Assembly (NCBI GenBank): GCA_036574075.1
Contig: JAINCN010000031.1
Location: forward strand, 386-64,385
Length of the DNA stretch: 64,000 nt
Direction of reading: 5' to 3'
Source of the DNA: Deltaproteobacteria bacterium
GTDB taxonomy: Bacteria; Desulfobacterota; Dissulfuribacteria; Dissulfuribacterales; UBA5754
Shown here: piece by piece, positions 25,547-51,639 of the stretch
Numbering within the stretch: the first letter of the stretch is position 1
Layout: the number at the start of each line of letters is the position of its first letter
Made by a program: the position numbers and the translations under genes
The notes under the pieces: model-generated
Told to the model about the DNA's origin: nothing
What the model saw: only the letters and a program-made list of their open reading frames with translations
The model's database searches: none

Positions 25547-27301
25547 TCAAACTTCGTCTTCTTGCATTGAGATCAGGAGGGTGGGAAGAAAACGGGGATC
25601 TATTTCCGTGCCAGGGGGGATCCCGGCAAGGGCGTCTGCAGTCTCCTCGAAGGGTGTGCGGATCAGGCGGGTGATGCGGTCGGCCGGAATGCCCGACCGG
25701 GAGGCGAGGAGCCCGATCCCGTCCGCAAGGGATTTCATGGCGGTTTCCACCGTTTCGAGAGCTTCGTGCGGAAACGTCTCCGCCGGTACCCACAGCCTGC
25801 GGAGTTCCGGAAGCATCCTTCGGGGGATGGGGGCGAGTTCGAGCGTTCCCGTGAGCTGCCAGAGGGCGAGGGCCGTGAGGATGGCCGAGGGCCACAGGAG
25901 TTCCCGTGGATCCTGGAGATTCGTGTGCGACCACGGAAAGGCCTTTTCCCAGGTCGACCAGTGGGGTTCGATGCAGGGCATGATCCGGCAGGCGTCCTCA
26001 ACGAGTAGGAGCCTCTTTTCCGCCTCTTCGATCTGTCCCATGGAATTCGGAGTCTCGTGATGCTCCGTAACGGGATTCCACAGGACCGGTCTGTCCCGGG
26101 AAAGGCCTTCGACGAGAAGCCCCCACGGCTCTGGGAGGTGGATCAGGTCCTTGGGAACGAGCCCCTCACGGATAAGGGAGCGCGCCCGTTTTGAAAGACC
26201 CCGGATGATCCCGTTTGCCAGGTGGATCAGGTCCTCGATGGTGGTATGGGTGAGGACCTCAACGGGCTTGCGCCCGTAGAGGCATTTTTCATGATCGAGG
26301 GAGAGATTGAGGAGGGAGGACACCTTTTCCAGGGCGGAACGGAGTGCAGAGACGTCGTCCCAATCGACCTGATCGGCCACAAGGATCTTGTTCGCCGCTC
26401 CGGTCCATTCGAGGACGATCCTTCCCATGGCCGAGGTCCCGGAAAGGGCGTTGACGGCCTCGGCAAGGGGACCTTCCCTAAGGCCGTAAAGGGTGGGGAC
26501 AAAGACGGGAAGGGGGATGTCTTCATACGCAGGCTGAACGAATGCGCGGCGCTTCAATCGTTTTTCAGGAAGGGGTGCATAGATCTCTATGGCATCAAAG
26601 TAATCCGGGATGCCCCAGGACCCAAGGCGTGCGCATCTCATGCGGTATGAGTGTTCGAGGGTCTCGGTCGGTGTATCCCAAAGCAGGGTCTCCATGACAT
26701 CCCGGTACGACCCGGGGGAGATGCCAAGGAGTTCCTTCAGGAATTCCGCAAGGAGGGGAACGAGTTCCTGTTTCCGGAAGGAGATGTAATAGACGTCGTC
26801 CAAGGTGAATGGGGGGAGGGTGTCCCGCGCCTCCTGGATGTCCATGTCATCCGGGCGCTTTACGACGCGAAGAAAGGGCTGAAGGGCTGCGGGAACGAGC
26901 GCGTAGTCCTGGGCAAGTATCCATGTCAGCCAGGAAACAAGGACAGACCGGTCGTTTTCGAAAAGAAGGACGAGCCAGGCGAGGACCTTTTCCGGCCGGA
27001 GCTGGTCCTTTGCCCACCAGTCCAGATCGAACATGAACTGGAGCTGTTCAGGGAGGGCAAGCTCAAACATGGCCAAGGCGTCTTCCGGGCTCGATGCCTT
27101 GATGGTCCAGAAGAGTTCCTCCACGGGCAGACCCCGGACGAGTTCCCGTGAGTTGGGTGAGTGCAGGATGATCTCATGGCGTTGTTCCCAGGGGGTGAGG
27201 AGGACGAGGATCGCCTGATCGTCTATGGAGAGGGTCTCCAGGTTTTTTTCCCGTTCTTTTGGGGGTAAGGATAGGTAAAAGGCCGGATCGATCTGGCTCA
27301 A
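25547..27301 (-). CDS. hypothetical protein, 584 aa (MgtE-N/FliG-like helical repeats at N-terminus?)
   Basis: Long ORF with coding-like composition, 20 nt upstream of the lipoprotein gene on the same strand. No catalytic motif recognised. Confidence 0.6.
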   Translation of the reverse strand: MSQIDPAFYLSLPPKEREKNLETLSIDDQAILVLLTPWEQRHEIILHSPNSRELVRGLPVEELFWTIKASSPEDALAMFELALPEQLQFMFDLDWWAKDQLRPEKVLAWLVLLFENDRSVLVSWLTWILAQDYALVPAALQPFLRVVKRPDDMDIQEARDTLPPFTLDDVYYISFRKQELVPLLAEFLKELLGISPGSYRDVMETLLWDTPTETLEHSYRMRCARLGSWGIPDYFDAIEIYAPLPEKRLKRRAFVQPAYEDIPLPVFVPTLYGLREGPLAEAVNALSGTSAMGRIVLEWTGAANKILVADQVDWDDVSALRSALEKVSSLLNLSLDHEKCLYGRKPVEVLTHTTIEDLIHLANGIIRGLSKRARSLIREGLVPKDLIHLPEPWGLLVEGLSRDRPVLWNPVTEHHETPNSMGQIEEAEKRLLLVEDACRIMPCIEPHWSTWEKAFPWSHTNLQDPRELLWPSAILTALALWQLTGTLELAPIPRRMLPELRRLWVPAETFPHEALETVETAMKSLADGIGLLASRSGIPADRITRLIRTPFEETADALAGIPPGTEIDPRFLPTLLISMQEDEV

Positions 27302-28328: not shown

Positions 28329-29933
28329 ATGGCGACACTTCAGGCCATACATGCGCCAAGGGTGGGCCAGGACGCAGACGGGACGCCGGGTAGTGTCCCC
28401 CGTTTCCGCCTTCTCGTGGTGGATGACGACGAGATGGTCCGCAAGCTCCTTGTCGAGCACATTCGTGCCTTTGGGGATTTTGATGTGGACGAGGCTGCTG
28501 GCGCCTTTGATGCCTTGGCGCTCTTGGAAGGGTCTGCTTCGTATGACGGTGTCCTTGTTGACATCAACATGCCCGGAATGGACGGGATCGAATTCATATC
28601 CCGGATCAAGGAGCGGGATCGGACTATCGTGGCCATGGTCATCACGGGGTATCCATCCTATGACCGGATCCTTGATGCCATGCGGGCAGGGGCCATGGAT
28701 TTCCTTGCCAAGCCTTTCAAAAGCGATCAACTGAAACTCGCGCTCGAGAGGCTGGTCAAGGAGAGGGAAATCCTCCTGGAAAACAGCCTGCTTACCCAAG
28801 AACTCGCCGGGAAAAAGGCCCTCGAGGCCGTCAACGAACAGCTGAAGAAAAAGATCCGGGAGCAGACGATCATTCTCACAATCAGCGAAACGCTCGGAAA
28901 GGTCCGGAGCACGCGGGAGCTCTACCGCAGGGTGGTGGCCCTTGCCGCGAATCTGACCGACGCCGGGCACGCCTTTTTCTGGGTCGTCGACCACGAGGCA
29001 CGACGGCTCGTCCTCATGGCCTCAGAGGGCATGGGTGTCCCGGAATGGGAGGTGGGTGATATCACGGATGAGGCCATGCCGGCATCCCGCGTGGCAAGGG
29101 AGGGGATTCCGATGCTTTTCACCCGTACCCGTTTATCCCGCACGGAAGGCCCAGTCTCCCCCTTCGCGGAGACCGCCCTCGTACCCTTTCGAATACGGGA
29201 GGAGATCTTCGGCGTCCTTGCCATCGCCCGTACGGAAAATGAGCGGATCCTGACCGAGGAGGTCCTTTTTCTCCTTCTCATCCTCGCGGAGCGGGCAAGC
29301 CTCACGGTAGAGAATCTCCTCCTTTACGAGAGTGTCTCCCTCAATCTCCACGCTACCCTCCGCGCCCTTGTCAGAATCCTGGAGGCCAAGGATCCGTACA
29401 CGAAAGAGCATTCGCTGAGGGTCACCCGGCTTGCCGTGGCCGTGGCCGGGCACATGTCATGCGATTCAGACGAGATAGACTCCCTTCGCTTTGCCGGTCA
29501 CCTCCACGACATCGGAAAGATCGGCATTCGGGACCAGATCCTCTTCAAACCCGGACGGCTCACCGAGGAAGAATACGTGATCATCAAGACCCACCCGGTC
29601 ATAGGAGAAGAGATCGTCGGGCATCTCGGGGTCCTTCCCCGCGAAAAGGCCTGTATCAGGCACCACCACGAGAGGTGGGACGGGAAAGGATACCCGGACG
29701 GGCTTTTGGAAACGGAGATCCCGCAACTCGCGCGTATCCTCGCAGTCGCCGATACCTTTGACGCCATCACGACGAACCGTCCGTATCGGCCATGCCGTAC
29801 GCAGGAAGAGGCCGTGATGGAGATCAGGAAAAATGCCGGCACCCAATTCGACCCCCACGTCGTTGATGCCTTTCTCGATACGTTTTATGATGGTGATTCA
29901 TGGGGAAAAGCGGGTGAATCCACTGAACCATAG
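28329..29933 (+). CDS. response regulator with GAF and HD-GYP domains (c-di-GMP phosphodiesterase type)
   Basis: 534 aa with REC (LLVVDDDE...VLVDINMPGMDG), a central GAF-like region, and HD-GYP motifs HLHDIGKIGI and HHERWDGKGYPDGL. Confidence 0.85.
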   Translation: MATLQAIHAPRVGQDADGTPGSVPRFRLLVVDDDEMVRKLLVEHIRAFGDFDVDEAAGAFDALALLEGSASYDGVLVDINMPGMDGIEFISRIKERDRTIVAMVITGYPSYDRILDAMRAGAMDFLAKPFKSDQLKLALERLVKEREILLENSLLTQELAGKKALEAVNEQLKKKIREQTIILTISETLGKVRSTRELYRRVVALAANLTDAGHAFFWVVDHEARRLVLMASEGMGVPEWEVGDITDEAMPASRVAREGIPMLFTRTRLSRTEGPVSPFAETALVPFRIREEIFGVLAIARTENERILTEEVLFLLLILAERASLTVENLLLYESVSLNLHATLRALVRILEAKDPYTKEHSLRVTRLAVAVAGHMSCDSDEIDSLRFAGHLHDIGKIGIRDQILFKPGRLTEEEYVIIKTHPVIGEEIVGHLGVLPREKACIRHHHERWDGKGYPDGLLETEIPQLARILAVADTFDAITTNRPYRPCRTQEEAVMEIRKNAGTQFDPHVVDAFLDTFYDGDSWGKAGESTEP

Positions 29934-32357: not shown

Positions 32358-32397
32358 TTGTCACGAAAATGCCACCAAAATGTAACGCAATCGTCAC
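32358..32397 (+). promoter_or_regulatory. four heptamers at 11-bp phasing (Pho-box-like array)
   Basis: TTGTCAC-gaaa-ATGCCAC-caaa-ATGTAAC-gcaa-TCGTCAC at 32358, 32369, 32380 and 32391. On the coding strand 37 nt upstream of the 805-aa ORF. Confidence 0.5.
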
Positions 32398-32433: not shown

Positions 32434-34851
32434 ATGCAAGCACGCCTTTTTGTTACCATGCCCATGGAGTCCGACGGAAACGCCCATGTCTTTCTCCGGG
32501 GTCATCTTTCAGGGCTTCCGTTTTCTCCTGCCGACGTCACTGCAGGCGTGGAGAACGAGCTCCAGGCGGTCGTAAAGGGCAGCCGGGACTCCGTTGACCT
32601 GCCCCTCGCCATTGCGGGGTCCAACTACTATGCGAACATCGTGAAAAGGGCCGTCTCTGGCGAGGCCAGAAGGCGCGAAGTGACTGCACTTGAAGACTTC
32701 CTCGCCGCAAATGACGAGGGGGTCTGGGAACACAGTTGGGTCCGTTTCCCCAGAAGGTGCCTCTCGCCCGGGGCCGTCGAGATCCTCGAAGAGGATCTTC
32801 GGGCAGACAGGCGTGATCCTGATTCTGGCCCTCGGAGGGACAGGGAGCGGTTTCTTTTTGAAAAGGCGGGTGAAGACTGGGTCCGGGTCCCAGTGAGTTA
32901 TCTCTTGAAGATCGCCCTTGCGGACGCCGTCCTCTCGCCCGGGCCTCTTCCCAGGGGAATCCGGCTCGCCGGGCGTGCCCTTTTGGACCACTTCCTGAAC
33001 GACAACGTCTCCCCGGAGACCACGTCCTTTTTCGTGCACGAGGGGGGCGGCGGATGGGGGCCGGGACGGGCCGCGGCACTGGAGACGGCCCTCCGCTATC
33101 TCCTGACCCAGCTCATTGTCCGATACGCGAACATCAAGTTCGACCTCGTCCAGAACGATCAGGAGGTCGTGGTGTACTTCGCTCCGTGCCCTCCGGTCCG
33201 GCTCAGGGAGCTTAACGAGATCATATCGGACGCCTTCTACGCGGAGCTCTTTGTGAGTCCGTGTCTTTCAGGCTGGGATCGGGGCGAGGAAAAATATCGC
33301 TACATGCTCCTCTGCCACCAGGTCCTTGGCAGGAGCCAGCTCAACGCCATCGGCAAGCTCCGGGACGCGGGGATCGTCACGAACAACCTGGTCGTCCTGC
33401 CCAATACATCCCACATCGGGCTTGCAAACAACGGCACCCACGTGACCCTCGGGAGCAAGGCACTGACGCGTCTCCTTGCCGAGGGGCATCCCTGGTTCGG
33501 CCCACGCCAGGAAAAGTACATAGGGGACCTGGTCACCAAGGTAGTCGAGCACTTTCTGCCCCTTTTCGTCGGCACGTACACGGCCGCGCCCTGGAGGCTC
33601 TCCTTTGCGGAATTCCATCCGGAAAAGGTCCTCGGTTACCTCCCCCATGAGCTCGACTTCACCCATCTCAGGATGATATGGAGGCGCTGGAAGGGAAAGG
33701 CCCGTAACAAGGTCCTCGGAAGGGCCTTCACCCCATTCGGCCCCCGATGGATCGATCGTCCCCTGAGTGCCCTTCTCGGGCTAAAGGGGGATTTCGTGCC
33801 TGATTTTCGTCTCGTGGACTATTTTGTCTCCCTCATGAGCACGGAGAGCTCTCCGGGGCTTGACGGAAGACTTGGCAATCAAGAACGTCTCAAACGGGAT
33901 CTGGCCACCCTTGGGGTCTTCGACCCTGCCATGGCGACCTATCTGCTCTTTCGCCAAAGGGAATACGAAAAGTCTGGTTTTTTCGGCTTCGAGGCCAGGC
34001 ACTACAGCCTTTTTGAGGGATTCGACCGGGATATGACCCCTGCGGTGGACCTTCAGGCCCTCGTGACAGCCTTTGCCTTTAGGTCTGTCCTCCATTCTGA
34101 GGTCCGCCATGAACACATTCCGGACGATCCCGAGACGGAAAGCGAGCGGAGGCAGATCTTTTTCGGGGCAGCCATCGGGATCCCCACCTTTTTCGTGAGA
34201 AAGGGCACACGGAACGCCTTTTTGAAAAGGGTCATGGAAAGGACGGAAAAGGTGAGGGAGAGCAGGAGATATCCGGGCTTTCTCCGGGTGCATAACGATG
34301 AATACAGAAAGGCCCTCGTCCGCGTCCTCCGGGAGGACGGGGCCGATCTCATCGAGGATTTCGGTCTGGAGGACACGGTCAGGGATCTGTCCGAAAGGTT
34401 CGAACTGCACGGGGAAAAGGACGCACTTTCCCGCATTACCTCAGGGGTCATCCAGACCGCTGGCCAAAGGGATGCCTTCTCTTGTGAGGCGCGCGCCTTT
34501 AACGTGGCCGCTGAGCGATATTTCCGTACGACCCTTCGCCGCAGGCACGTAACAGAGGCTTACGCCTTTTTCAAGGAGACGATCCGATCCCTCGAGGGGT
34601 CAGGCGCCCTTGACGGGCGGCAGGAACGGGAATCAATCCGGGCCGTCCTCAAGGGGCGATCCGCTCTGGAGATCGTCCAGGAAGCGGAAAAGGACATCTG
34701 CCAGGATGCCGCCCACCTCGATTTGACCGTCCGGATCATCCATCTTCTCATTCTTGTAATCCACATCCTGGCGGGCCGAAACACGGCCGTGCATCCATTC
34801 GAGGAGATCATTTCCCATGATGCACCAGTATATCGAACGGGAATCGGGTAG
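32434..34851 (+). CDS. orphan 805-aa protein, no family recognised
   Basis: Long ORF with coding-like third-position GC. No motif I can assign, and only a hydrophobic C-terminal segment (LTVRIIHLLILVIHILAG). The start could also be 32458 or 32464. Confidence 0.7.
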   Translation: MQARLFVTMPMESDGNAHVFLRGHLSGLPFSPADVTAGVENELQAVVKGSRDSVDLPLAIAGSNYYANIVKRAVSGEARRREVTALEDFLAANDEGVWEHSWVRFPRRCLSPGAVEILEEDLRADRRDPDSGPRRDRERFLFEKAGEDWVRVPVSYLLKIALADAVLSPGPLPRGIRLAGRALLDHFLNDNVSPETTSFFVHEGGGGWGPGRAAALETALRYLLTQLIVRYANIKFDLVQNDQEVVVYFAPCPPVRLRELNEIISDAFYAELFVSPCLSGWDRGEEKYRYMLLCHQVLGRSQLNAIGKLRDAGIVTNNLVVLPNTSHIGLANNGTHVTLGSKALTRLLAEGHPWFGPRQEKYIGDLVTKVVEHFLPLFVGTYTAAPWRLSFAEFHPEKVLGYLPHELDFTHLRMIWRRWKGKARNKVLGRAFTPFGPRWIDRPLSALLGLKGDFVPDFRLVDYFVSLMSTESSPGLDGRLGNQERLKRDLATLGVFDPAMATYLLFRQREYEKSGFFGFEARHYSLFEGFDRDMTPAVDLQALVTAFAFRSVLHSEVRHEHIPDDPETESERRQIFFGAAIGIPTFFVRKGTRNAFLKRVMERTEKVRESRRYPGFLRVHNDEYRKALVRVLREDGADLIEDFGLEDTVRDLSERFELHGEKDALSRITSGVIQTAGQRDAFSCEARAFNVAAERYFRTTLRRRHVTEAYAFFKETIRSLEGSGALDGRQERESIRAVLKGRSALEIVQEAEKDICQDAAHLDLTVRIIHLLILVIHILAGRNTAVHPFEEIISHDAPVYRTGIG

Positions 34852-35821
34852 GATCCGTACCGAGGTCTTCTTTGGTGAATCGCTCGTGAAGTTTCTCTAT
34901 GGTCCGGTTCGTGAAAATGCCCCGGCCCTGTTTGATATCCTCACGTCGGCACGCATATCCTCCTTTCTGGGATTTCTGAACTACGATGTCTTTCTCGGCC
35001 AGCGCATCAACAGGCGTTTTTTCCAGGACTTAGGGATCGACCTCTCCGAGTGTCTCGACCCACCACATACCCTTGACACGCCCCGAAAGGTCTTTGAGCG
35101 CAAGATCCGCTACTGGGAACTCCGGCCACTTGCGCATGGACAGGATAGTATCCTTTCCCCTGCTGATGCGAAGGCATTCGTGGGCTCCCTTCGAAAGTCA
35201 TCGAGCCTGTTCGTCAAGGGGAAGTTTTTCGATCTCGCGGAGCTCCTCGGAGAGGAAAGAGGCGGCTGGGTCCCTGCCTTCCAGGATGGGGACTTCGCCG
35301 TATTTCGGCTGACGCCTGAAAAATACCACTACAACCACGTCCCGGTCTCTGGAAAGGTCCTCGACATCTACGAGATCCCCGGGAGATATCATTCCTGCCA
35401 TCCGGAGGCGGTCCTCTCGATTCCCACCCCCTATTCCAAAAACAAGAGGGTGGTGACGATCCTGGATACGGACCTGCCCGGGGGGACCGGGGTCGGCCTC
35501 GTCGCCATGGTAGAGATCGTGGCCCTCATGATCGGTGGGATCGAGCAGTGCTACAGCGAAGAGCGTTACGACTACCCACAACCGATCACACGCGGGCTCT
35601 TTCTTCGGGCAGGCTGTCCCAAGAGCCTCTTTCGCCCTGGGAGCAGCACGGTGATCCTGCTCTTTCAGAAGGATCGGGTCATTTTCGAGGAGGACATCCT
35701 TCGTAATCAGAACACTGTCAACGTGGAGAGTCGCTACAGCCTCGGGTTAGGCCGCCCGGTGGTGGAGACAGAGGTCCGTGTTCGATCTGCAGTCGCACGG
35801 GCGAGGAAGGTCAGGTCATGA
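34817..35821 (+). CDS. phosphatidylserine decarboxylase-family proenzyme
   Basis: 334 aa with FRLTPEKYHYNHVPVSG (PSD DYHR-type motif) and the self-cleavage motif FRPGSSTVILLF (GS|S/T). Overlaps the preceding ORF by 35 nt. Confidence 0.8.
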   Translation: MMHQYIERESGRIRTEVFFGESLVKFLYGPVRENAPALFDILTSARISSFLGFLNYDVFLGQRINRRFFQDLGIDLSECLDPPHTLDTPRKVFERKIRYWELRPLAHGQDSILSPADAKAFVGSLRKSSSLFVKGKFFDLAELLGEERGGWVPAFQDGDFAVFRLTPEKYHYNHVPVSGKVLDIYEIPGRYHSCHPEAVLSIPTPYSKNKRVVTILDTDLPGGTGVGLVAMVEIVALMIGGIEQCYSEERYDYPQPITRGLFLRAGCPKSLFRPGSSTVILLFQKDRVIFEEDILRNQNTVNVESRYSLGLGRPVVETEVRVRSAVARARKVRS

Positions 35822-36873
35822 CGATCTCTGCCCTCGTTTTTCTCGCCGGGCTTTCCGTCTTTTTGGGCATATCTCTTTTTTGGGGCATACGCGTCCTTCC
35901 GGGTGAGAGGTGGCAGATGCTCGCCTCAGTGCCCATTGTCAAGGAAAAGGACGGGACATGGTCCGGCCTAAACCTGACCTATTATGGTGCGCTCACGGCA
36001 AATTCCTATGTCCTTGCTGCGGCGGTCTTTCTCGTCCTTCTCGCCTCGGTCGGGGTCCCGGTCTGGCTCTCTGTTTCCGGGGTCGTCCTGGTCCTTGTCG
36101 TCTGCATGCCCCTTTCACGGGTCATCGCGGGGGTCGTTGAAGGAAAGCGCCACACCTTTACCGTGGGCGGGGCGTCTTTTGCCGGGCTCATGCTGGGACC
36201 GCCGGTCTTTTGGGGCCTGAACGCCGTGGCAGATGCCCTTGGGGCCGGCGCGGTGGAGGTGGCCCCGGCGGTCACGGCCATGGCAGTCGCCTATGCCTTT
36301 GGGGAAGGGTTGGGAAGGCTCGCCTGCCTGAGCTTCGGGTGCTGTTACGGACGGAGGCTGGAGGAGGCGCCCCGCTTTCTTCAGCGGATGCTCATGGGCT
36401 GGGGTACGGTCTTTACGGGAAAGACCAAGAAGGCGGCCTACGAGTCCGGGCTGGACGGGGTGAGGCTCGTCCCGGTACAGGCCATGACAGCAGTCCTTTA
36501 CGCCGGAACTGGGCTCGTATCGACCGGCCTTTTTCTTCTCGGCTGGTACCGGTGGGCCTTTCTCTTGGCGGTCCTTGTCACCCAGGGGTGGCGGGCGTGG
36601 TCAGAGACACTTCGGGCAGATTTTCGGGGTGGAGGGAGGATCAGCGCCTATCAGTGCATGGCCGTTGCGGCCATGGCATATGCCGTCCTCCTTGCCTGGT
36701 TCCTCCCGGACGGAAGCGGCAGGTCCGATGTGCTCATGGGGATGAAGGCCGTCTCGAATCTCCCAACCGTCCTTTTCCTCCAGGGGCTCTGGATCGTGAG
36801 TTTTCTTTATACCGGCAGGAGTTCTGTGACGGGATCAAAGGTCACGTTTTACGTCTTCTCAGAGAGGATTTGA
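35818..36873 (+). CDS. Lgt-like (prolipoprotein diacylglyceryl transferase family) polytopic membrane protein
   Basis: 351 aa with about 7-8 hydrophobic helices and a GRLACLSFGCCYGR motif resembling the Lgt GRxGxFxNGxxxG block. ATGA overlap with the PSD gene stop. Confidence 0.55.
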   Translation: MTISALVFLAGLSVFLGISLFWGIRVLPGERWQMLASVPIVKEKDGTWSGLNLTYYGALTANSYVLAAAVFLVLLASVGVPVWLSVSGVVLVLVVCMPLSRVIAGVVEGKRHTFTVGGASFAGLMLGPPVFWGLNAVADALGAGAVEVAPAVTAMAVAYAFGEGLGRLACLSFGCCYGRRLEEAPRFLQRMLMGWGTVFTGKTKKAAYESGLDGVRLVPVQAMTAVLYAGTGLVSTGLFLLGWYRWAFLLAVLVTQGWRAWSETLRADFRGGGRISAYQCMAVAAMAYAVLLAWFLPDGSGRSDVLMGMKAVSNLPTVLFLQGLWIVSFLYTGRSSVTGSKVTFYVFSERI

Positions 36874-38068
36874 TGGATGAGGCGGCGTCTTTGAGGATCT
36901 CCGCCTTGTCCGTCATCTCCCACGGAAGACCCAGGTCGGCCCGACCGACCTGTCCGTACGCGGCCAGTTTCTTGAAGAATCCGCCCTTTATCATGCGGGG
37001 CAGATGGCGAAGCCTGAACTGTTTGAGGATGCCGGCCGGACGGAACTCGAAGTGTTCAGAGAGGAGACGCACGATCTCCTCGTCCGGGACCTTGCCGGTC
37101 CCGAAGGTCTCGACCAGGATGCTGACAGGCCTGGATCGACCGACTGAATAGCTCACCTGGACCTCGCACTCGTCGGCGATCCCGGCGGCCACCACATTCT
37201 TTGCGGCGTATCGCGCGGCATAGGCGCCTATGCGGTCCACACGCCTCGGATCCTTGCCGCTCAGGGCGGCGCCGCTGTGCCTGGCGTATTCTCCGTAGGT
37301 GTCGATGGCGTTCTTTCGCCCGGTGAGCCCTGAATGGACCGCGGGCCCGCACCCCAAATGGGAAAAATCGGACCGGATGTCGATGTTCGTGTCTGCGTCC
37401 GGGCGGATCTCCTCCTCCTTGAAGACCTCGTCGATGACCGTCTCCTTGACGTCGTCGAAAAGCCTCTTGGGATCGGCCGATTTCTTCACGCATGTCTGGA
37501 TCGTGATGGTCTGGATCCGGCTCGGTCGTCCATTTTTGTATTCCACCCCCACCTGGGTCTTGGCGTCAGGCGTGAGATAGGGAAGGATGTTCGTGTAACG
37601 GACCCGTGAGATCTTCCTGGCGAGCCGATGGGCAAGGAAGATGGGCATGGGCATGAGGACAGGCGTCTGATTGCAGGCATAGCCGAAGGCGTTGGCCTGG
37701 TTGCGTACCGGAATCCGCTCGATCTCGTCCTCGTCGATGGCCAGCTCGTCGAAACGGAGGGCTTCTTCGAGGGGCTGTTCCTTGAGGCTCGTGAGCGCTG
37801 TGCAACTCCGTCCGCTGAAGGCCTCGTCCCGGTAGCCCACCTCGTTGATGATCTCCCTGGCCACATACGGGACGTCCACAACCGCTGTCGAGGCGAACTG
37901 GACCGCGAGGAAGACGATGGACTGGGAGATGGCGCATTCGGCGATGATGGACGAGAGGGAGTCCTGCTGGAGGAACCTGTCCACGATGGCGTCGCTGATC
38001 TGGTCACAGAGTTTGTCCGGATGTCCTTCCGTGACCGATTCTGAGGTGAAGAGAAAATCCTTTCTCAT
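36842..38068 (-). CDS. divergent S-adenosylmethionine synthetase (MetK-family) protein
   Basis: 408 aa from ATG 38068, which overlaps the ATPase stop (ATGA). N-terminal FTSESVTEGHPDKLCDQISD. PDAKTQV, GLTGRK and SGKDPRRVDRIGAYAARY are conserved, but the GAGDQG and GD(C) motifs are altered (see findings). Confidence 0.8.
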   Translation of the reverse strand: MRKDFLFTSESVTEGHPDKLCDQISDAIVDRFLQQDSLSSIIAECAISQSIVFLAVQFASTAVVDVPYVAREIINEVGYRDEAFSGRSCTALTSLKEQPLEEALRFDELAIDEDEIERIPVRNQANAFGYACNQTPVLMPMPIFLAHRLARKISRVRYTNILPYLTPDAKTQVGVEYKNGRPSRIQTITIQTCVKKSADPKRLFDDVKETVIDEVFKEEEIRPDADTNIDIRSDFSHLGCGPAVHSGLTGRKNAIDTYGEYARHSGAALSGKDPRRVDRIGAYAARYAAKNVVAAGIADECEVQVSYSVGRSRPVSILVETFGTGKVPDEEIVRLLSEHFEFRPAGILKQFRLRHLPRMIKGGFFKKLAAYGQVGRADLGLPWEMTDKAEILKDAASSIKSSLRRRKT

Positions 38069-41000
38069 GGCGATGGCCTTTTTCGTTTTTTGATGGACTC
38101 GTTGATCAGGAACGGGAGGCATGCGGCGCATCCCGTAACGACCGCATCCACGGCCCCGATCGCTCCTATTCCGAGGAGGGAGCGGAGGCCGGGAAGGAAA
38201 AGGGCTGCCCCCTGAAGGGCCAGGGATCCGCCCACGGCCGCATGGAGATATGGGTTGGGCCGGGAGGCGACCTCGAAGGCGTTTTTCGTCTCAGACCTGC
38301 AACTGTACGCATGTAGAAGCTGGGAGGTGGTGAGGGACAGGAAGGCCATGGCGCTGGCCCCGGGGCCCACACCGTGGCGGAGGATGCCGTAGCCGTAGGC
38401 CCCGAGCGTGGAGACGCTGATGATGGCCGCCTCCCGGCCGATTCGGTGCATGTCGTCACGCCTGACGATCGCCTCTCGCGGATCCCGCGGGGGATGATCC
38501 AGGACGTCCGCCTCCGGGGCCTCCATGGAGAGGGCAAGGCCGGGAAAGATGTCCGTCACGAGGTTTATCCAGAGAAGCTGCATCTCCGTCAGGGGCTGCC
38601 CGGTCCCGAGGATGTTCGACACAAAGGAGACCATGATCTCGCTCATGTTGGTGGAAAGGAGATACCCGAGGGACTTGCGGACATTGGCATAGATGGTGCG
38701 GCCCCGGGAGATGGCAAGGATCATGGTCTCGATCCGGTCGTCCTCGATGACCACGTCAGCCACCTCGCGGGCCACGTCGGTCCCGGTCTCTCCCATGGCC
38801 ACACCCACGTCGGCCGCCCGTAGGGCAGGGCTGTCGTTCACCCCGTCCCCGGTCATGGCCACGACCTTTCCGGCCCCCTGGAGGGCCTGGACGATCTCGA
38901 GCTTGTTGGCTGGGCTCACCCGAGAAAAGATGCTCGCCCGCACGGCGAGTCCTTGAAGTGCCTGGGGATCGAGGTTCGAGATGTTGGAAGAATCGAGGAT
39001 GACCAGTTTGTCCTCTCCGCTGATCTCGAGTTCCTTGCCCACGGCAAAGGCGGTCGGAGACTGGTCTCCGGTGATCATGACCGTGTCGATCCCCGCCCGG
39101 TGGAAACGTCTGATGAGCTCCTTGACCCCGGGCCGAATGGGATCCGTCATGCCGGTAAGCCCAAGCCAGGTAAGGTCCTGTGTGAGGACCTCGTCATCCG
39201 GAAGGGGATCCCCGTCAAGGAACTTGTAGGCAACCCCGAGGACCCGGAGCGCCCTGCCTGCCATGCGTTCGTTCTGCATGCGGATCCTCATGATGTCTTC
39301 TTCCTCGAGGGGGCACTGCGCACCTTCGAGGATCCAGGTGCGGCACAGGGCCAACACCTCCGAGGGGCTACCCTTGACGGCGACGAAGTGGCGACCGGAG
39401 GGGAGGCGATGGACGGTCACCATGAAGTTCCTTTGTTCGGCCCTATGAAGGATCTTGACCCGAGGGGTGTTGGTTTTGAGACGATGGATGTCGATACCGC
39501 CCTGCACGGCAAGGGCGAGTAGGGAGTTTTCCGTGGGGGTCCCCTGGATCTCGAAGTCGTTTCCGTTGCGAGGAATGATCTCGCTTTCGTTGCAGAGGGC
39601 GCATACTACGAGGATTCCCCTGAGCTCGTCGGCGATGTCAAGCCCATCCTGCGGGCAGGGAGCGAGGGACCATTGCCCGTGGATGGGGACGACCTTCTCG
39701 CCTGCGTAAAGCTCCACGACCTTCATGCGGTTTTCTGTTATCGTCCCGGTCTTGTCGAGGCAGATGACCTGGATAGCGCCCAGGGCCTCGATGGCGTCCA
39801 GATGCCGGATGAGGATGTTGTGACGCCTCATGTCACGGACCCCGAGGGCAAGGGTCGTTGTGGCCACGGTGGGAAGGCCTTCTGGGACCGCTGCCACGGC
39901 GAGAGAAATGGCGGTCTTGAGCATGGGCAGGAGTCCGTGGCCTCTAAGGAGACCGAGAACGAATACGAGCCCGCAGAGGACGCCGGAGATGGCCACGAGT
40001 CGGGTCCCGATGGCGTCAAGCTGGCGCTCCATGGGTGTCTCAGGCACTTGTGCCTCGCCGACCAGGGTCTGGATCCTGCCCATTTCCGTGTAACGCCCCG
40101 TGGCGACGGCGATGGCAAGCCCCTGTCCTCCGGTAACAAGGGTGCCCATGTAGCACATGTTCGTCCGATCGCTCAAGGGAATACTACCTTCGGATGCGAT
40201 GCGCAGAGGGTTTTTCCCGACCGGAATCCCTTCTCCGGTGAGAGCGGATTCGTCGATGCTCAACCTTGCTGACTCGACGATGCGGGCGTCGGCAGGGATG
40301 TAGTTTCCAGGCCGAAGTACGATGAGGTCTCCGGGGACGATCTCCTCAGCGCCGATCTCCAGGAGTTTTCCTTCCCGTATCGCAATGGCCCTGGGGCGTA
40401 CGAGCGTCTTAAGGGAGTGGATGGTCTTTTCCGCCTGACTCTCGGTTATGTAGCCTATGATGGCGTTGATGACCACGACCCCAAGGATGACGGCAGCGTC
40501 CATAAGTCCGCCCGTGAGGGCAGAGATGCCAGATGCCAAACCGAGGAGTGCCACGGGAACCGAGGCAAACTGCCCGAAAAAGATCTTGAGCCCTGAACGG
40601 GGAACCGCCTCTGGCAGGACATTCGGGCCAAACCTTCGGAAACGTTCTTGGGCCACGATGGAGGAAAGGCCGTCGCGGGGCGAGGTCTCGAGAAACCGTG
40701 CCACCTCGTCAGACTCCATGAGGTGCCAAGCAAGGGCCTTTTGTTCCTCAGATGTACTGACCAGCCTGACGAGCCGACGCCTGGAGATTGCGGATTTCTT
40801 CTTTTTAGTGGATCGGTTCGGGGGATCGTATGCAGATAGAGAGAGGGTTTTCCCTACTCCTACAACGGGTTTTGAACCGTTCCTCGATTTGACGACCGCT
40901 TCAACAATGGAGATGACCTGCGCAAGTTCCTGAGTCGCCGGAAACGTGACGAGAAGGTGACCGGTCAAGGGGTTGGCCTTGGCCTGGGAGATCAACTTCT

Positions 41001-41124
41001 CGTCACGCAGACGGCTTTCGAGATGACGCTTCAGGTCCTGGGAGCGGTAAAGGCCGGTGACGTGAAGACGTACCCTTCCCGGAACGGCCGTATGGACCGG
41101 CTTGACGACACGCGATGCCTCCAT
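38065..41124 (-). CDS. P2-type cation-transporting P-type ATPase with N-terminal HMA-like domain
   Basis: 1019 aa with DKTGTITENRM, PEGLP (VAAVPEGLPTV), MITGDQ and TGDGVNDSPALRAADVGVAMG. The first ~75 aa (VPGRVRLHVTGL...ANPLTGHLLVTF) are paralogous to the two small proteins upstream. Confidence 0.9.
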   Translation of the reverse strand: MEASRVVKPVHTAVPGRVRLHVTGLYRSQDLKRHLESRLRDEKLISQAKANPLTGHLLVTFPATQELAQVISIVEAVVKSRNGSKPVVGVGKTLSLSAYDPPNRSTKKKKSAISRRRLVRLVSTSEEQKALAWHLMESDEVARFLETSPRDGLSSIVAQERFRRFGPNVLPEAVPRSGLKIFFGQFASVPVALLGLASGISALTGGLMDAAVILGVVVINAIIGYITESQAEKTIHSLKTLVRPRAIAIREGKLLEIGAEEIVPGDLIVLRPGNYIPADARIVESARLSIDESALTGEGIPVGKNPLRIASEGSIPLSDRTNMCYMGTLVTGGQGLAIAVATGRYTEMGRIQTLVGEAQVPETPMERQLDAIGTRLVAISGVLCGLVFVLGLLRGHGLLPMLKTAISLAVAAVPEGLPTVATTTLALGVRDMRRHNILIRHLDAIEALGAIQVICLDKTGTITENRMKVVELYAGEKVVPIHGQWSLAPCPQDGLDIADELRGILVVCALCNESEIIPRNGNDFEIQGTPTENSLLALAVQGGIDIHRLKTNTPRVKILHRAEQRNFMVTVHRLPSGRHFVAVKGSPSEVLALCRTWILEGAQCPLEEEDIMRIRMQNERMAGRALRVLGVAYKFLDGDPLPDDEVLTQDLTWLGLTGMTDPIRPGVKELIRRFHRAGIDTVMITGDQSPTAFAVGKELEISGEDKLVILDSSNISNLDPQALQGLAVRASIFSRVSPANKLEIVQALQGAGKVVAMTGDGVNDSPALRAADVGVAMGETGTDVAREVADVVIEDDRIETMILAISRGRTIYANVRKSLGYLLSTNMSEIMVSFVSNILGTGQPLTEMQLLWINLVTDIFPGLALSMEAPEADVLDHPPRDPREAIVRRDDMHRIGREAAIISVSTLGAYGYGILRHGVGPGASAMAFLSLTTSQLLHAYSCRSETKNAFEVASRPNPYLHAAVGGSLALQGAALFLPGLRSLLGIGAIGAVDAVVTGCAACLPFLINESIKKRKRPSP

Positions 41125-41991: not shown

Positions 41992-42474
41992 TCATTTCGT
42001 TGATTCGCCTCCCTTTAGAAGCAGGTTCATTCCGTACCAGAGGGCGGTGTACCAGGCAGGTCCGGCGACCCTGCCCTGAAGGATCTGATACGCCCCCCAA
42101 CCCGCCAAGGCGAGAAAAGCGGCGGTTGGGATGTCAATCTGTCCGTTCGTTCCGGCCGTCACTGCGGAATTCAGGGTTCTGTATCCGTCTTTTATCCTTT
42201 GGGACAAGGGGCGAGTGTGTTTAGATGGCTGCCGTACGATGGTAAAAAGGCCAAGTGTCTCTGCCGCTTGACTGATTTGCCCAGGTGTTGAGCGATGCAT
42301 GATGAGTACACTGGCGGTTGTGGGGTTGGCCCTGACCTTCGTGACCATGTCGATATTGGAAAAGGCCTTTTCAATGTCTGCGAAATAGCCTGGGTCGTAT
42401 CTCCTTTCAGGGATCCTGAGACGGATTCTCCCTGTGCTTTCGTGAGCGACGGACGCCTCAGGAAGCCTTTTCAC
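41992..42474 (-). CDS. HMA-like domain protein with C-terminal hydrophobic region (copy b)
   Basis: Contains TGRIRLRIPERRYDPGYFADIEKAFSNIDMVTKVRANPTTASVLIMH and a C-terminal TM-like IPTAAFLALAGWGAYQIL...WYTALWYGMNLLL. There is no in-frame ATG after the upstream gene stop, so I propose GTG 42474, and the start is uncertain. Confidence 0.55.
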   Translation of the reverse strand: MKRLPEASVAHESTGRIRLRIPERRYDPGYFADIEKAFSNIDMVTKVRANPTTASVLIMHRSTPGQISQAAETLGLFTIVRQPSKHTRPLSQRIKDGYRTLNSAVTAGTNGQIDIPTAAFLALAGWGAYQILQGRVAGPAWYTALWYGMNLLLKGGESTK

Positions 42475-42751
42475 CCTCTTCCGCCTGGGAAGCCAAAGTG
42501 GCCTTGGTATGCTCTTCCTCGATTTCGGCCTGGACCTCGGCCCACATGTCCTCAATGGACTCGGCAAGCTCTGCGGCGGCCTCCTTCCCCTTCTCGTAAA
42601 AGAGAAACCCACTTTTAATGAAGGCCTTGGCTACGGGTTTGACGGTCTGGCCCAGGACAGGGATGAGTTTAGGGGCGACGGCTGCGGCGCCCAGCCCGAT
42701 GGCAAGACCTGCTAATGTCTTGTTCTTGAAGATATCTTCGACGATGCCCAC
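42458..42751 (-). CDS. small membrane-associated protein (DUF5132-like, from memory)
   Basis: TM-like LAGLAIGLGAAAVAPKLIPVL followed by an acidic helical tail. GTG 42751 has a strong SD (GGGAGGGA 6 nt upstream). The track start, ATG 42778, has none. Confidence 0.6.
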   Translation of the reverse strand: MGIVEDIFKNKTLAGLAIGLGAAAVAPKLIPVLGQTVKPVAKAFIKSGFLFYEKGKEAAAELAESIEDMWAEVQAEIEEEHTKATLASQAEEGEKAS

Positions 42752-43131: not shown

Positions 43132-43500
43132 CTATATGAGCGCTGATACAAAGGAGAGGCCCATGGATTCAAGGGCCTTTTCCGCGGTGTATCCGAAGAT
43201 GGCCTTTCCGATAAATTCACCGGCGACCGCGGCCTGCCTGCTGACAAAATCCTCCTGTTCGATCTTTGTGCGGTCGAAATAGCCCGAGTTTTCCAGGGTC
43301 GTGAGGATGATGTCGTGATGGAGGACGTTTTTGTCGTACGTGATGAGGATGCTTCCTGTTGTGGTGTTGGTCTCGACGGACCTCACTCCCCGGAGCTGGC
43401 GCACTATGGTAGAGACATGTTCGGCCCGTGCGGGATTCTTTTTGATCAATGGGGTCTTGATCCGGATCCTGCCCGCAACCTCATGAAGATAGTAGCTCAT
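43132..43500 (-). CDS. HMA-like domain protein (copy a)
   Basis: 122 aa from ATG 43500 (SD GGAGAGG). Contains AGRIRIKTPLIKKNPARAEHVSTIVRQLRGVRSVETNTTTGSILITYD. The 206-aa track ORF is a 5' over-extension. Confidence 0.7.
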   Translation of the reverse strand: MSYYLHEVAGRIRIKTPLIKKNPARAEHVSTIVRQLRGVRSVETNTTTGSILITYDKNVLHHDIILTTLENSGYFDRTKIEQEDFVSRQAAVAGEFIGKAIFGYTAEKALESMGLSFVSALI

Positions 43501-43772
43501 GATGTCCTCTCCATGTATATGATCTTTTTGTAAGTTTTGCACATGGGATATTTTGAGCACCTGAATCTGATGCAGGTCTTCTCCCGCCTGTAAACGTACA
43601 TGATGTGCCCGCATAAGGGACAAACAAGTCGGGATCCCGGAAGTAATTTTGGCTCTGCGGAGCCGGAATACTGCCGGCCGCATGACATGCAAAGATAGCG
43701 TTGTTTTCCTCTTCCGGTCTTGCCATATCGGTAAAAGGTGTCTGATCCGCAATCAGGACAGCGTATTTCCAT
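43497..43772 (-). CDS. double zinc-ribbon protein (IS1 InsA-like ribbon plus topoisomerase-type C4 finger)
   Basis: 91 aa from ATG 43772: MEIRCPDCGS..GKQRYLCMSCGRQY then CPLCGH..FRCSKYPMC. ATGA overlap with the next gene. Confidence 0.65.
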   Translation of the reverse strand: MEIRCPDCGSDTFYRYGKTGRGKQRYLCMSCGRQYSGSAEPKLLPGSRLVCPLCGHIMYVYRREKTCIRFRCSKYPMCKTYKKIIYMERTS

Positions 43773-43796: not shown

Positions 43797-43836
43797 GTTA
43801 CAGGCGTGTGACAAAATTGTGACAATTCTGTGACAA
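43797..43836 (-). promoter_or_regulatory. two tandem Pho boxes (four heptamers, 11-bp phasing)
   Basis: Minus strand reads TTGTCAC-agaa-TTGTCAC-aatt-TTGTCAC-acgc-CTGTAAC. A TATTAA hexamer (43781-43786) lies 10 nt downstream and the ATG follows 8 nt after it. Confidence 0.7.
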
Positions 43837-50072: not shown

Positions 50073-50122
50073 TGGAGCCTGCAGGTCTTGGGCTTGCGTG
50101 TGATGCGCGTCGCAGAAAACGG

Positions 50123-50149
50123 GCACCCCTCTGGTTTGGTGAGGGGCGC
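50123..50149 (-). terminator. pstS-pstC intergenic hairpin (attenuator-like)
   Basis: Minus strand: GCGCCCCTC-accaaacca-GAGGGGTGC followed by CCGTTTTCTG. Confidence 0.45.
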
Positions 50150-51239: not shown

Positions 51240-51257
51240 GTTACAATTTTGTGACAA
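51240..51257 (-). promoter_or_regulatory. Pho box upstream of pstS
   Basis: Minus strand reads TTGTCAC-aaaa-TTGTAAC, against the E. coli consensus CTGTCAT-A(A/T)A(T/A)-CTGTCA(C/T). A TATACT hexamer lies at 51212-51217. Confidence 0.75.
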
Positions 51258-51636
51258 TCGACCCCTCGATCACGACCACTGCGCCTGCGTATTCGGCCTC
51301 GTGCGTGAGGCTCAGATGGAATCTCTCCGCTCCCATTTTCTTTGCATGCAAGGCGGCGTTTCCGCCGAGCCTCAGGACGGGCTTGCCGGAAGGCTCGTGG
51401 ACGACCTCCATCTGCCGCCACGAAACCCCATGGCGCATCCCCGTTCCGAGGGCCTTGGAACAGGCCTCCTTTGCGGCGAACCGGGCAGCAAGGGCGGCCT
51501 TTTCATTGGATCGGCCTATGCAAAACCCGAGTTCAGCCGGGGTATAGATCCTCTCCAGAAAACGCGATCCCCAGCGTCTGGCCGCCTGTTCGAGCCTCGG
51601 GATAGAAACGAGGTCGATCCCGATACCAAGGACCAT
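51241..51636 (-). CDS. acpS: holo-[acyl-carrier-protein] synthase
   Basis: 131 aa with GIGIDLV and [14 protein letters not shown] motifs. Confidence 0.93.
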
Positions 51637-51639
51637 TGC

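Follow-up and report, generated by a model that had tools for sequence, protein, structure and literature searches.

A conserved three-gene operon behind predicted PhoB sites in Desulfobacterota, with a proposed role in making a BACys-type phosphorus-free aminolipid

Introduction

What is a gene of the phosphatidylserine decarboxylase (PSD) family doing between a large gene that no sequence profile recognises and a gene for an Lgt-like membrane protein, downstream of what appears to be a Pho box? This question is raised by three overlapping genes, A, B and C, of the window, by which we mean the whole 64,000-nt stretch of DNA that was analysed. The initial annotation had hypothesised phosphate-starvation lipid remodelling through diacylglyceryl transfer combined with a decarboxylated amino-acid head group, a proposal that the sequence comparisons below support and make more specific. 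We favour, with modest confidence, a reading in which A-B-C is a PhoB-activated operon that would make a BACys-type, phosphorus-free thioether aminolipid from phospholipid.

Results

Three coupled genes behind a Pho-box array

The features discussed here are:

32359-32397, + strand: Pho-box array of four direct half-sites repeating exactly every 11 bp, 37 nt before the A ATG
32434-34851, + strand: gene A, 805 aa, predicted glutamate-cysteine-ligase-like (GS/GCL carboxylate-amine ligase) fold
34817-35821, + strand: gene B, 334 aa, PSD-family pyruvoyl proenzyme
35818-36873, + strand: gene C, 351 aa, polytopic Lgt-family paralog
43797-43835, - strand: second array of four Pho-box half-sites, upstream of an ATPase operon (context, outside A-B-C)
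51257 down to 44287, - strand: pstSCAB-phoU, behind the pstS Pho box
51240-51256, - strand: Pho box TGTCAC-aaaat-TGTAAC immediately before pstS (calibration context, outside the operon)

The ATPase operon, composed of Zn-ribbon/HMA_2 genes, a P-type ATPase gene and metK, converges on gene C.

A, B and C are three translationally coupled ORFs of one operon. At the A/B junction, a GAGGAG Shine-Dalgarno sequence is followed by the B ATG at 34817, and the A stop codon (TAG, 34849-34851) closes a 35-nt overlap; the B/C junction is an ATGA at 35818-35821. Both overlaps are as first described, as is the hydrophobic C-terminal helix of A (residues 762-780, Kyte-Doolittle 2.13). A might instead begin at M11 (32464), the start used by P0001, a protein of 795 aa with 100% identity. 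Called A and B genes also overlap elsewhere, by 41 nt in locus L051, 32 nt in L053, 29 nt in L054 and 4 nt in L059.

A Pho box was defined as at least two 7-bp direct repeats in 11-bp phasing that take the place of a -35 element. The half-sites before A are TGTCAC (32359), TGCCAC (32370), TGTAAC (32381) and CGTCAC (32392), and the promoter scan upstream of A found no sigma-70 -35 element or canonical promoter. The pattern is expected by chance only 0.01-0.02 times per 64-kb window, and its only occurrences in this one are the sites preceding A, pstS and the ATPase operon; the "Pho-box-like array" noticed earlier is real. An identical architecture is present in locus L001, and arrays also lie upstream in Desulfonema and Desulfococcus. 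Across 50 loci, 11-bp-phased triple repeats are enriched upstream of A (mean 13.04 vs 11.08 in controls), an enrichment specific to lag 11, since all remaining lags show differences of at most 0.5 in the same 50 upstream regions. A strict-motif score of at least 14 is reached by 7 of 51 loci vs 0.26% of controls.

Conservation and genomic neighbourhood

Of 43 informative loci, 42 have the genes arranged as A-B-C, so the three are indeed co-conserved, a property singled out in the initial annotation as a check on its proposal. The operon is conserved across anaerobic Desulfobacterota, its carriers being Geobacterales, Syntrophales, Desulfobacterales, Desulfobulbales and a few others; cultured organisms with this gene order include Geobacter pickeringii, Geobacter sp. 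SVR, Desulfonema ishimotonii and Desulfococcus. The operon of other genomes lies beside or inside pstSCAB-phoU-phoB, with pstS, pstB or phoU adjoining it in at least 11 loci. A response regulator encoded directly upstream scores 297 vs the PhoB equivalog cut-off of 296.2, and in C. bremense (L018) A and B are separated by phoB, a phoR-like kinase gene and phoU. The calibrated Pho box, the conserved 11-bp repeats and this pst/phoU/phoB linkage together support Pho control of A-B-C by predicted PhoB sites.

Other neighbours include genes for PsiE, PhoH, alkaline phosphatase, Zn-phospholipase C and PPK/PPX, as well as phn genes. Several are suggestive of lipid turnover (Zn-PLC, patatin, DAG kinase and GT4 lipid-glycosyltransferase-like genes), and in Geobacteraceae a GT4 gene of this kind adjoins A-B-C.

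Gene B encodes a PSD-family enzyme below the PSD equivalog cut-offs

The pyruvoyl-enzyme hallmarks first read in B, YHYNHVP and GSST, are borne out by profile and alignment. B matches PF02666 over residues 92-302 with 123.4 bits (cut-off 22), and E. coli Psd (PDB 7CNW/6L06), which is 26% identical to B over 280 residues, has His144/His147 and Gly-Ser254 at the positions of the two motifs. Asp117 (PAD117), His171/His174 and G275-S-S277-T are invariant in seven orthologs, Asp117 aligning to D90 and the cleavage site to G253-S254 of the E. coli enzyme. Both the autoprocessing triad (Asp-His-Ser) and the G-S site of self-cleavage are thus retained in B, and by these sequence features it is a genuine PSD-family pyruvoyl enzyme. 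Its full-length architecture is that of the ~300-aa clostridial type, as it covers positions 1-288 of the 297-position model PRK00723. This is also its best NCBIfam match, at 146.5 bits vs a cut-off of 371, and B falls below the cut-off of every PSD equivalog in that collection. Weak matches to PsiD-type Trp decarboxylases were also obtained. B further differs from known PSDs in its constant place between A and C, in its predicted Pho control and in its proposed substrate, a gamma-glutamyl head group rather than phosphoserine.

Gene C encodes a divergent Lgt paralog

The resemblance of C to diacylglyceryl transferases, remarked on earlier, holds at the level of family and signature. The window protein itself scores below threshold (PF01790, 17.7 bits vs a cut-off of 24.9; NCBIfam Lgt, 18 vs 334), and all 37 tested orthologs match LGT at E of 0.1 or less, the best at 1.2e-13. 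The motif GRLACLSFGCCYGR aligns to the Lgt signature GRLGNFINGELWGR. An hhalign comparison pairs C with Lgt at R167/R143, R259/R239, E263/E243, R266/R246 and G178/G154, all invariant in 37 sequences; because the hhalign probability is low (E 0.018), this alignment rests on the motifs. The polytopic core of C is homologous to that of Lgt (E. coli b2828; PF01790), and it keeps the GR-x10-G signature and the equivalents of Arg143/239, both catalytic arginines, Glu243 and Arg246.

Three Lgt positions are replaced in C: His103 by Ala or Val, Asn146 by Cys170 and Glu151 by Cys175. In the E. coli enzyme these residues are reported to be important or even essential. C has three invariant cysteines (Cys170/175/176). 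C is also ~60 residues longer, with about eight hydrophobic segments in the family hydropathy profile, including an extra N-terminal one, a profile compatible with either orientation. Its "head" loop (residues 160-221) is strongly basic (K+R 7.7 vs D+E 4.0). Based on these comparisons, we consider C a divergent Lgt paralog, homologous to Lgt and below the Lgt thresholds. The chemistry proposed for it is that of Lgt, namely diacylglyceryl transfer from phosphatidylglycerol to a Cys thiol with release of glycerol phosphate; the lipobox protein that Lgt uses as acceptor would, however, be replaced by a free amino acid or by a dipeptide.

One could argue that B is simply the housekeeping PSD and C the housekeeping Lgt, that A is an unrelated neighbour and that the clustering is meaningless. 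B does have all PSD catalytic motifs, no second PSD-like gene was found in the window or in any retrieved locus, and C-family proteins carry the annotation Lgt in some sources. This is nevertheless highly improbable in view of the strict conservation and translational coupling with A, the Pho boxes and the pst/phoB linkage. Both proteins also stay below their NCBIfam equivalogs (146 vs 371 for B, 18 vs 334 for C), C is devoid of His103, Asn146 and Glu151, and no pssA-like gene adjoins B in seven annotated neighbourhoods. The suggestion that B might be the housekeeping psd is consequently not supported. Geobacter genomes presumably carry a separate short psd-pssA pair together with a canonical lgt.

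Gene A is a large family with a predicted GCL-like fold

A was initially described as an orphan that carries no placeable motif. The first part does not hold, as a sequence search returns at least 2,836 homologs. The second stands at the level of sequence profiles: the window protein has no Pfam, NCBIfam or PDB sequence match, its PDB profile search was empty, and 54 homologs gave no Pfam or NCBIfam match at E of 5 or less. By sequence profile A falls outside PF04262, PF04107, PF03074, PF00120 and PF03136, and hhalign of A against E. coli GshA returned nothing. The structure prediction that had been recommended for this protein does, however, place it. While an earlier model built from a shallow alignment had no structural match, the AlphaFold model (pLDDT 88.5, pTM 0.91) retrieves, at Foldseek ranks 1-10, exclusively GshF, GshA and yeast GCL, then PafA and Dop. 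The E-values are marginal (0.012-0.5, none at or below 0.001), with TM-scores on the target of 0.32-0.47 and a probability of 1.00-0.9 for the top five matches. The best and only consistent matches are GshA and the GshF N-domain (PDB 1V4G, 3NZT, 3LN7; TM 0.43-0.47). We thus assign A, at these marginal E-values, a predicted GS/GCL-superfamily-like fold.

Residues E40/E42, E99, H336 and E520/R522 are fully or almost fully conserved in A1 and A3 and lie on predicted strands 35-42, 97-99, 335-341 and 518-524. As read from their sequence order and the predicted strands, these conserved Glu-x-Glu, His and Glu-x-Arg elements follow one another as the GCL metal/ATP ligands do, and they are our candidate active-site residues of A. 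Compared with GCL, A has some 300 additional residues and carries an all-helical C-terminal region together with the terminal hydrophobic helix, and sequence-profile similarity to GCL is undetectable. A, a cytoplasmic protein, forms a compact stand-alone family without a Pfam model and is probably a new GCL-like enzyme. Enzymes of the GS/GCL superfamily also ligate other amines, including NH3, polyamines and Lys, so that Glu and Cys as substrates of A are a guess.

The same superfamily has members, PafA among them, that ligate small molecules or proteins, which leaves room for a role under phosphate stress outside bulk lipids. A-B-C could make a soluble thiol or amine derived from gamma-glutamyl-cysteine, or lipidate one specific protein or peptide, C then serving as a specialised lipoprotein transferase. 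The known substrate of Lgt is a protein, and PSD-family enzymes can use soluble substrates, B itself weakly matching the PsiD-type decarboxylases. We judge such a role distinctly unlikely: no conserved candidate gene for a substrate protein or peptide was found in the operon across the annotated neighbourhoods, the neighbours (Zn-PLC, patatin, DAG kinase, GT4) suggest lipid turnover, and the overall architecture of B is that of the lipid PSDs.

Discussion

Proposed chemistry of A-B-C

From the gene structure, families, predicted fold, synteny and Pho boxes described above, we infer substrates, possible step orders and a product for the favoured lipid pathway. PhoB would activate A-B-C under phosphate starvation, so that existing phospholipid is converted to a phosphorus-free lipid. 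C would transfer the whole diradylglyceryl unit of phosphatidylglycerol to the thiol of cysteine or gamma-Glu-Cys, leaving glycerol phosphate from which Pi could be salvaged. A, held at the membrane through its C-terminal helix, would catalyse the ATP-dependent ligation of the glutamate gamma-carboxyl to the cysteine amino group; the C and A steps could occur in either order. The active site of Lgt faces the periplasm, which is in tension with the need of A for cytoplasmic ATP. Lastly, the pyruvoyl group of B would strip the alpha-carboxyl from the gamma-glutamyl end, whose free alpha-amino/alpha-carboxyl arrangement is the same as that of the serine of phosphatidylserine, to give a 4-aminobutanoyl amide as a zwitterionic head group. 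Combining diradylglyceryl transfer to a Cys thiol, the gamma-Glu-Cys amide and alpha-decarboxylation leads to the predicted lipid, N-(4-aminobutanoyl)-S-(diradylglyceryl)-cysteine. Its computed head-group cation (Glu + Cys - H2O - CO2, S-linked) is C7H13N2O3S+, 205.0641.

This chemistry was written down before it was compared with the report on BACys, lipids to which the Cys/gamma-Glu chemistry suggested by the fold of A points. BACys, or "N-butyramide cysteine glycerol" lipids, are formed by Desulfatibacillum alkenivorans, a Desulfobacterales sulfate reducer, exclusively when P is limiting (Ding et al. 2024, PNAS, PMC11181052). The same study gives a head-group fragment C7H13O3N2S+ of m/z 205.064, DAG/AEG/DEG cores identical to those of PE/PG, and accompanying GlcA glycolipids (PMC11181052). 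The predicted ion matches this fragment in composition and m/z, isomers being possible, and the shared cores are as expected for head-group exchange. The structure, tentative and based on MS2 only, is drawn there as a "butyramide" on cysteine (PMC11181052), the text consulted does not give its linkage to glycerol, and it may be an isomer of the predicted product. The study names no biosynthetic genes for BACys (PMC11181052), and we found no published ones. Desulfatibacillum was not among the best 120 A matches listed in either search, and no cluster member bears that name.

The operon might instead remodel membrane lipids under Pho control towards a different phosphorus-free product, for instance a decarboxylated O-linked serine or homoserine diacylglyceryl lipid, or a gamma-glutamylated amine lipid, with A joining a different carboxylate/amine pair. 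The regulatory and synteny evidence fits this equally well, a fold alone leaves the substrates of A undefined, and C, having lost several Lgt residues, may accept something other than a thiol. We hold such a product to be possible though unlikely, as it leaves unexplained the invariable pairing of a GCL-like protein (amine substrate Cys) with an Lgt-like protein (acceptor Cys thiol), and the one new P-limitation aminolipid reported from this clade matches Glu + Cys minus CO2 exactly in composition. If the preferred BACys-type pathway is correct, A-B-C would supply genes for these sulfur-containing, phosphorus-free lipids.

Comparison with known systems

BACys is a Desulfobacterota lipid made only under phosphate limitation, with the head group Glu + Cys - H2O - CO2 - H, diradylglycerol cores as in the replaced phospholipids and a co-occurring glycolipid, in keeping with the product proposed for A-B-C. 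The two differ in kind: BACys names a lipid for which its describers propose no biosynthetic genes (PMC11181052), and A-B-C is a set of genes. As a Pho-regulon, PhoB-controlled replacement of phospholipid by phosphorus-free lipid, the proposed pathway resembles the PlcP-Agt/Pgt glycolipids, BtaAB (DGTS) and OlsBA (ornithine lipid). The enzymes of those systems are unrelated to A-B-C, and their routes run via free DAG or acyl-ACP; A-B-C, by contrast, would operate by direct head-group exchange through an Lgt-like transferase and yield a thioether-linked sulfur head group.

Organization and conservation of the A-B-C operon

Genes A, B, and C, which encode a putative glutamate-cysteine ligase (GCL)-like protein, a phosphatidylserine decarboxylase (PSD) paralog, and a prolipoprotein diacylglyceryl transferase (Lgt) paralog, are arranged in the window as follows.

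32434-34851, + strand: gene A, 805 aa
34817-35821, + strand: gene B, 334 aa
35818-36873, + strand: gene C, 351 aa

The three overlapping reading frames described in the initial annotation are confirmed at these coordinates, and both junctions were read directly. GAGGAG lies ahead of the B start codon (ATG 34817) and the A stop codon (TAG) occupies 34849-34851, giving a 35-nt overlap; A and B overlap in other loci too. B and C have the ATGA at 35818-35821 in common. A scan of the cluster found no intrinsic terminator or sigma-70 promoter standing out inside A-B-C. The operon is preceded by genes for an NT5C-like nucleotidase and a MarC-family protein, and metK converges on C from the downstream side. 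Two further genes upstream of the operon region, for a response-regulator-GAF-HD(GYP-type) protein (28329-29933, + strand) and a DUF6178 protein (25547-27301, - strand), have no evident link to it.

The three genes, earlier proposed to form a unit, are indeed co-conserved. Among orthologous loci collected by a scan at one genome per species (49 loci) and by exact look-ups (five more), A, B, and C follow one another in that order on one strand in 42 of the 43 whose contig reaches far enough. Carriers include Geobacter pickeringii, Geobacter sp. SVR, Geomonas, Citrifermentans, Smithella/Syntrophales, Desulfobulbales, and, within the Desulfobacterales, Desulfonema ishimotonii and Desulfococcus, together with a few Gammaproteobacteria and Acidobacteriota MAGs and anammox-related bins. 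In the sole informative locus without B and C (L048:2337-2966, MAG ELA450), the match is limited to residues 23-288 of A (39% identity) and may represent a fragment or a homolog of the N-terminal domain standing alone.

In Smithella/Syntrophales, a small gene for a DksA/TraR-type zinc-finger protein (DksA_N and zf-dskA_traR domains) is found inside or just before the operon, between B and C in five loci (L009, L012, L025, L038, L045) and between phoB and A in three (L002, L051, L052). In Geobacteraceae, A-B-C is adjoined by a gene for a protein of about 810 aa (L053:7083-9518, - strand; also L050, L054, L011, and L041), in which an N-terminal CehA/McbA (PHP-like) metallohydrolase is fused to a C-terminal GT4 domain with lipid glycosyltransferases as its best NCBIfam matches. 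This fusion could be a one-protein "PlcP + Agt" for the glycolipid partner of an aminolipid. Two of these loci, L053 and L054, also carry Zn-phospholipase C and DUF2062 genes 3' of C.

Probable control by the Pho regulon

The 109-nt region 5' of A contains four half-sites, TGTCAC, TGCCAC, TGTAAC, and CGTCAC, at an exact 11-bp spacing (32359-32397), so the Pho-box-like array reported there initially holds up. Where 0.01 occurrences of the motif TGTMAC-N5-TGYMAC would be expected in the 64 kb, there are five: one ahead of A, one immediately ahead of pstS, and three overlapping copies at 43797-43835. Because the same rare motif precedes A and pstS, the array before A is predicted to be a native Pho box of this organism. 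Also present in the window are phoH and a pstS-pstC-pstA-pstB-phoU cluster (51257 down to 44287). In this cluster, the permease ORFs resembling pstC and pstA (47826-50126 and 46164-47813, both - strand) are of unusual length, 766 and 549 aa, with the BPD_transp_1 domain confined to their C-terminal parts. A neighboring 388-aa ORF (51640-52806, - strand) combines YbeY (30-139) and PdxJ (150-381) domains, through either gene fusion or a boundary left unresolved; next comes an acpS-like ORF (51260-51640, - strand), whose end abuts the pstS Pho box.

The three overlapping copies of the motif belong to a second array, which heads an operon of its own.

43797-43835, - strand: second four-half-site Pho-box array (three TGTCAC and one TGTAAC, 11-bp phasing)
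43771 down to 36842, - strand: genes of the operon behind the second array
ATG at 43771, - strand: Zn-ribbon/HMA_2 protein
43132-43752 and 41992-42612, - strand: further HMA_2-domain proteins
38065-41124, - strand: P-type cation ATPase, 1019 aa
Likely start 38068, - strand: metK, ATGA-coupled to the ATPase stop

The second array would thereby place a cation pump and a SAM synthetase (metK) together under Pho control. A P-type ATPase gene likewise lies just upstream of A in one orthologous locus (L022). A functional link of metK to A-B-C, through the SAM demand of a betaine-lipid-like route, was considered and rejected: metK is near the operon in only three loci and, in the window, forms part of this separate Pho-box operon.

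The strict E. coli-like half-site TGTMAC covers only part of the orthologous promoters, and in other orders the half-site drifts to TTTAAY/CTAAC; a motif-free lag analysis was therefore used instead. A set of 50 orthologous upstream regions shows an excess of triple direct repeats at a lag of 11 (13.04 vs 11.08 in controls), and at all other lags the difference from controls is at most 0.5. The physical linkage of A-B-C to Pho genes is strong. At least 11 loci have pstS, pstB, or phoU adjoining the operon, and in many Syntrophales loci the response regulator encoded immediately upstream reaches the PhoB equivalog cut-off. In Citrifermentans bremense R1 (L018:10751-15548), A and B are 5.6 kb apart and the insert encodes a PAS kinase, phoB, a phoR-like HAMP-PAS kinase, and phoU, placing Pho regulators inside the operon. 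Other neighbors are PsiE, PhoH, alkaline phosphatase, PPK, PPX/CHAD, and phn genes, as well as genes of a lipid-turnover type (Zn-phospholipase C, patatin, and DAG kinase). Taken together, A-B-C is very probably a Pho-regulated operon.

A predicted GCL-like fold for gene A

Gene A was initially taken for an orphan, a view overturned by its homologs, which number at least 2,836 at about 55% identity; they come from Geobacteraceae, Syntrophales, Desulfuromonadales, and other groups, carry the annotation "hypothetical" throughout, and include none with a Pfam domain. In an exhaustive profile search, the best 150 matches listed describe a compact stand-alone family with no visible link to other families. 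Neither Pfam nor NCBIfam gave a match, whether one member or 54 were used, and none was obtained by phmmer or hmmsearch against the PDB or by hhalign against E. coli GshA.

A first AlphaFold model, built from 54 sequences of about 55% identity, reached a pLDDT of 73 with residues 391-522 disordered, and Foldseek found no match for it. Only a more diverse alignment, extending down to 29% identity, yielded a confident model (pLDDT 88.5, pTM 0.91) and GCL matches: its ten best PDB matches by Foldseek fall in one superfamily, with GshF, bacterial GshA, and yeast GCL followed by PafA and Dop. The E-values are marginal (0.012 and up), but the matches are mutually consistent and agree with the conserved residues, Glu-x-Glu (residues 40/42), Glu99, His336, and Glu520-x-Arg522, which are placed on predicted strands and follow the order seen in GCL. 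C-terminally, A has an additional helical region that is closed by a hydrophobic helix (762-780). On this structural model, the A proteins most plausibly form a new family of ATP-dependent carboxylate-amine ligases akin to GCL, with substrates guessed from the nearest fold.

Genes B and C as paralogs of PSD and Lgt

By sequence, B clearly belongs to the PSD family (PF02666, 123 bits); over 280 residues it is 26% identical to E. coli Psd, and its PDB matches include 7CNW/6L06. The family hallmarks recognized at the outset are borne out: when seven orthologs are aligned with the E. coli enzyme, PAD117, YH171xxH174, and G275-S-S277-T are invariant. B nevertheless stays below every NCBIfam PSD equivalog cut-off (best 146 vs 371). 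The alternative that B is the housekeeping psd, raised in the initial annotation, and the parallel one that C is the housekeeping lgt, were rejected on context rather than by a direct genome-wide test; the search for a second PSD-like gene covered the window and the fetched loci, and found none.

C is a remote relative of Lgt. The window protein scores 17.7 on Pfam LGT, below the threshold of 24.9, while all 37 family members tested match (best 1.2e-13), in keeping with the resemblance to diacylglyceryl transferases first noticed; a PDB search with the family profile did not reach Lgt. Profile alignment with E. coli Lgt equates R167 with R143, R259 with R239, E263 with E243, R266 with R246, and G178 with G154, but His103, Asn146, and Glu151 of Lgt, which are essential or important there, are replaced in C by Ala/Val, Cys, and Cys. 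The three Cys of the signature motif are invariant in the C family. Given the below-threshold score and the replaced residues alongside the kept Arg, we name C an Lgt paralog and not Lgt. In the family alignment, C exceeds E. coli Lgt by a hydrophobic segment at the N-terminus, and its "head" loop (160-221; K+R 7.7 vs D+E 4.0) is strongly basic. There are hints that the Lgt core may be inverted, with its active site toward the cytoplasm, a point that the positive-inside rule did not decide; all three steps would then take place on the cytoplasmic face.

Proposed pathway and its relation to BACys lipids

Lgt uses the diacylglyceryl unit of phosphatidylglycerol (PG) to alkylate a cysteine thiol, GCL reacts at the cysteine amino group, and PSD removes CO2 from a lipid-bound amino acid whose α-amino and α-carboxyl groups are free. 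A γ-glutamyl residue has this same arrangement and would be a possible PSD-type substrate. Since the three family chemistries converge on one substrate, a product can be proposed. C would put a cysteine thiol directly in place of the phosphoglycerol head of PG, giving S-diradylglyceryl-cysteine and setting free glycerol phosphate for Pi salvage. A would place a γ-glutamyl group on the cysteine of the lipid, the order of steps not being fixed, and B would decarboxylate this group to 4-aminobutanoyl, leaving a thioether-linked γ-aminobutyryl-cysteine head group. The mechanism as a whole is one that we infer by analogy with these families. The predicted S-linked head group has a computed composition of C7H13N2O3S+ (205.0641).

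This product was written down before we found the report by Ding et al. 2024 on Desulfatibacillum alkenivorans, in which P limitation leads to almost complete replacement of PE, PG, and CL by glucuronosyl glycerolipids and a new sulfur aminolipid (PMC11181052). The latter, whose DAG/AEG/DEG cores are those of PE and PG, is defined by its head-group fragment, C7H13O3N2S+ (m/z 205.064), and was given the tentative name N-butyramide cysteine glycerol (BACys); that report proposes no genes for it (PMC11181052). The structure published there is tentative and may be an isomer of our predicted product. "Butyramide cysteine" occurred in the literature searched only in that report (PMC11181052). A Desulfatibacillum copy of A was not among the matches listed from a Desulfobacterales-biased profile search and a cluster-member look-up, which do not show its absence either.

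Composition, inducing condition, and clade all match, and a glycolipid-type GT4 gene lies nearby; on these grounds A-B-C is the best candidate for making BACys, and a BACys-type product is somewhat favored. The broader proposal of the initial annotation, lipid remodelling under phosphate starvation, fares better: the Pho boxes, the pst/phoB linkage, and the family chemistries all fit, and A-B-C likely remodels membrane lipids. It is possible, if not quite probable, that an Lgt-family enzyme was recruited from protein lipidation to bulk membrane-lipid synthesis, with a GCL-like ligase and a PSD paralog finishing the head group.

Significance and comparison with known remodelling systems

If true, A-B-C would supply the genes so far lacking for the "sulfur-for-phosphorus" BACys lipids, and BACys genes would be widespread in anaerobic Desulfobacterota (Geobacter, Syntrophales, Desulfobacterales, and Desulfobulbales). 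Three new enzyme functions would follow: an Lgt paralog with a small acceptor, a PSD paralog acting on a γ-glutamyl group, and a GCL-like family without a Pfam model, the last explaining more than 2,800 "hypothetical proteins". An orphan lipid thus becomes a three-gene hypothesis that is testable now, as the operon is present in cultured strains. Our gene-level and lipid-term literature searches found no description of the A-B-C enzyme set and no published genes for the sulfur aminolipid class of anaerobic Desulfobacterota (2024).

One of the main ways in which microbes respond to scarce P is to replace phospholipids by phosphorus-free lipids, and the known gene sets for this, PlcP/Agt, BtaAB, OlsBA/F, and Sqd, serve as markers in metagenomes. 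A-B-C could likewise serve to track "sulfur-for-phosphorus" membrane remodelling at the genome level in sediments, aquifers, and digesters. Pho-controlled phospholipid replacement is already well known; the A-B-C enzyme set is not.
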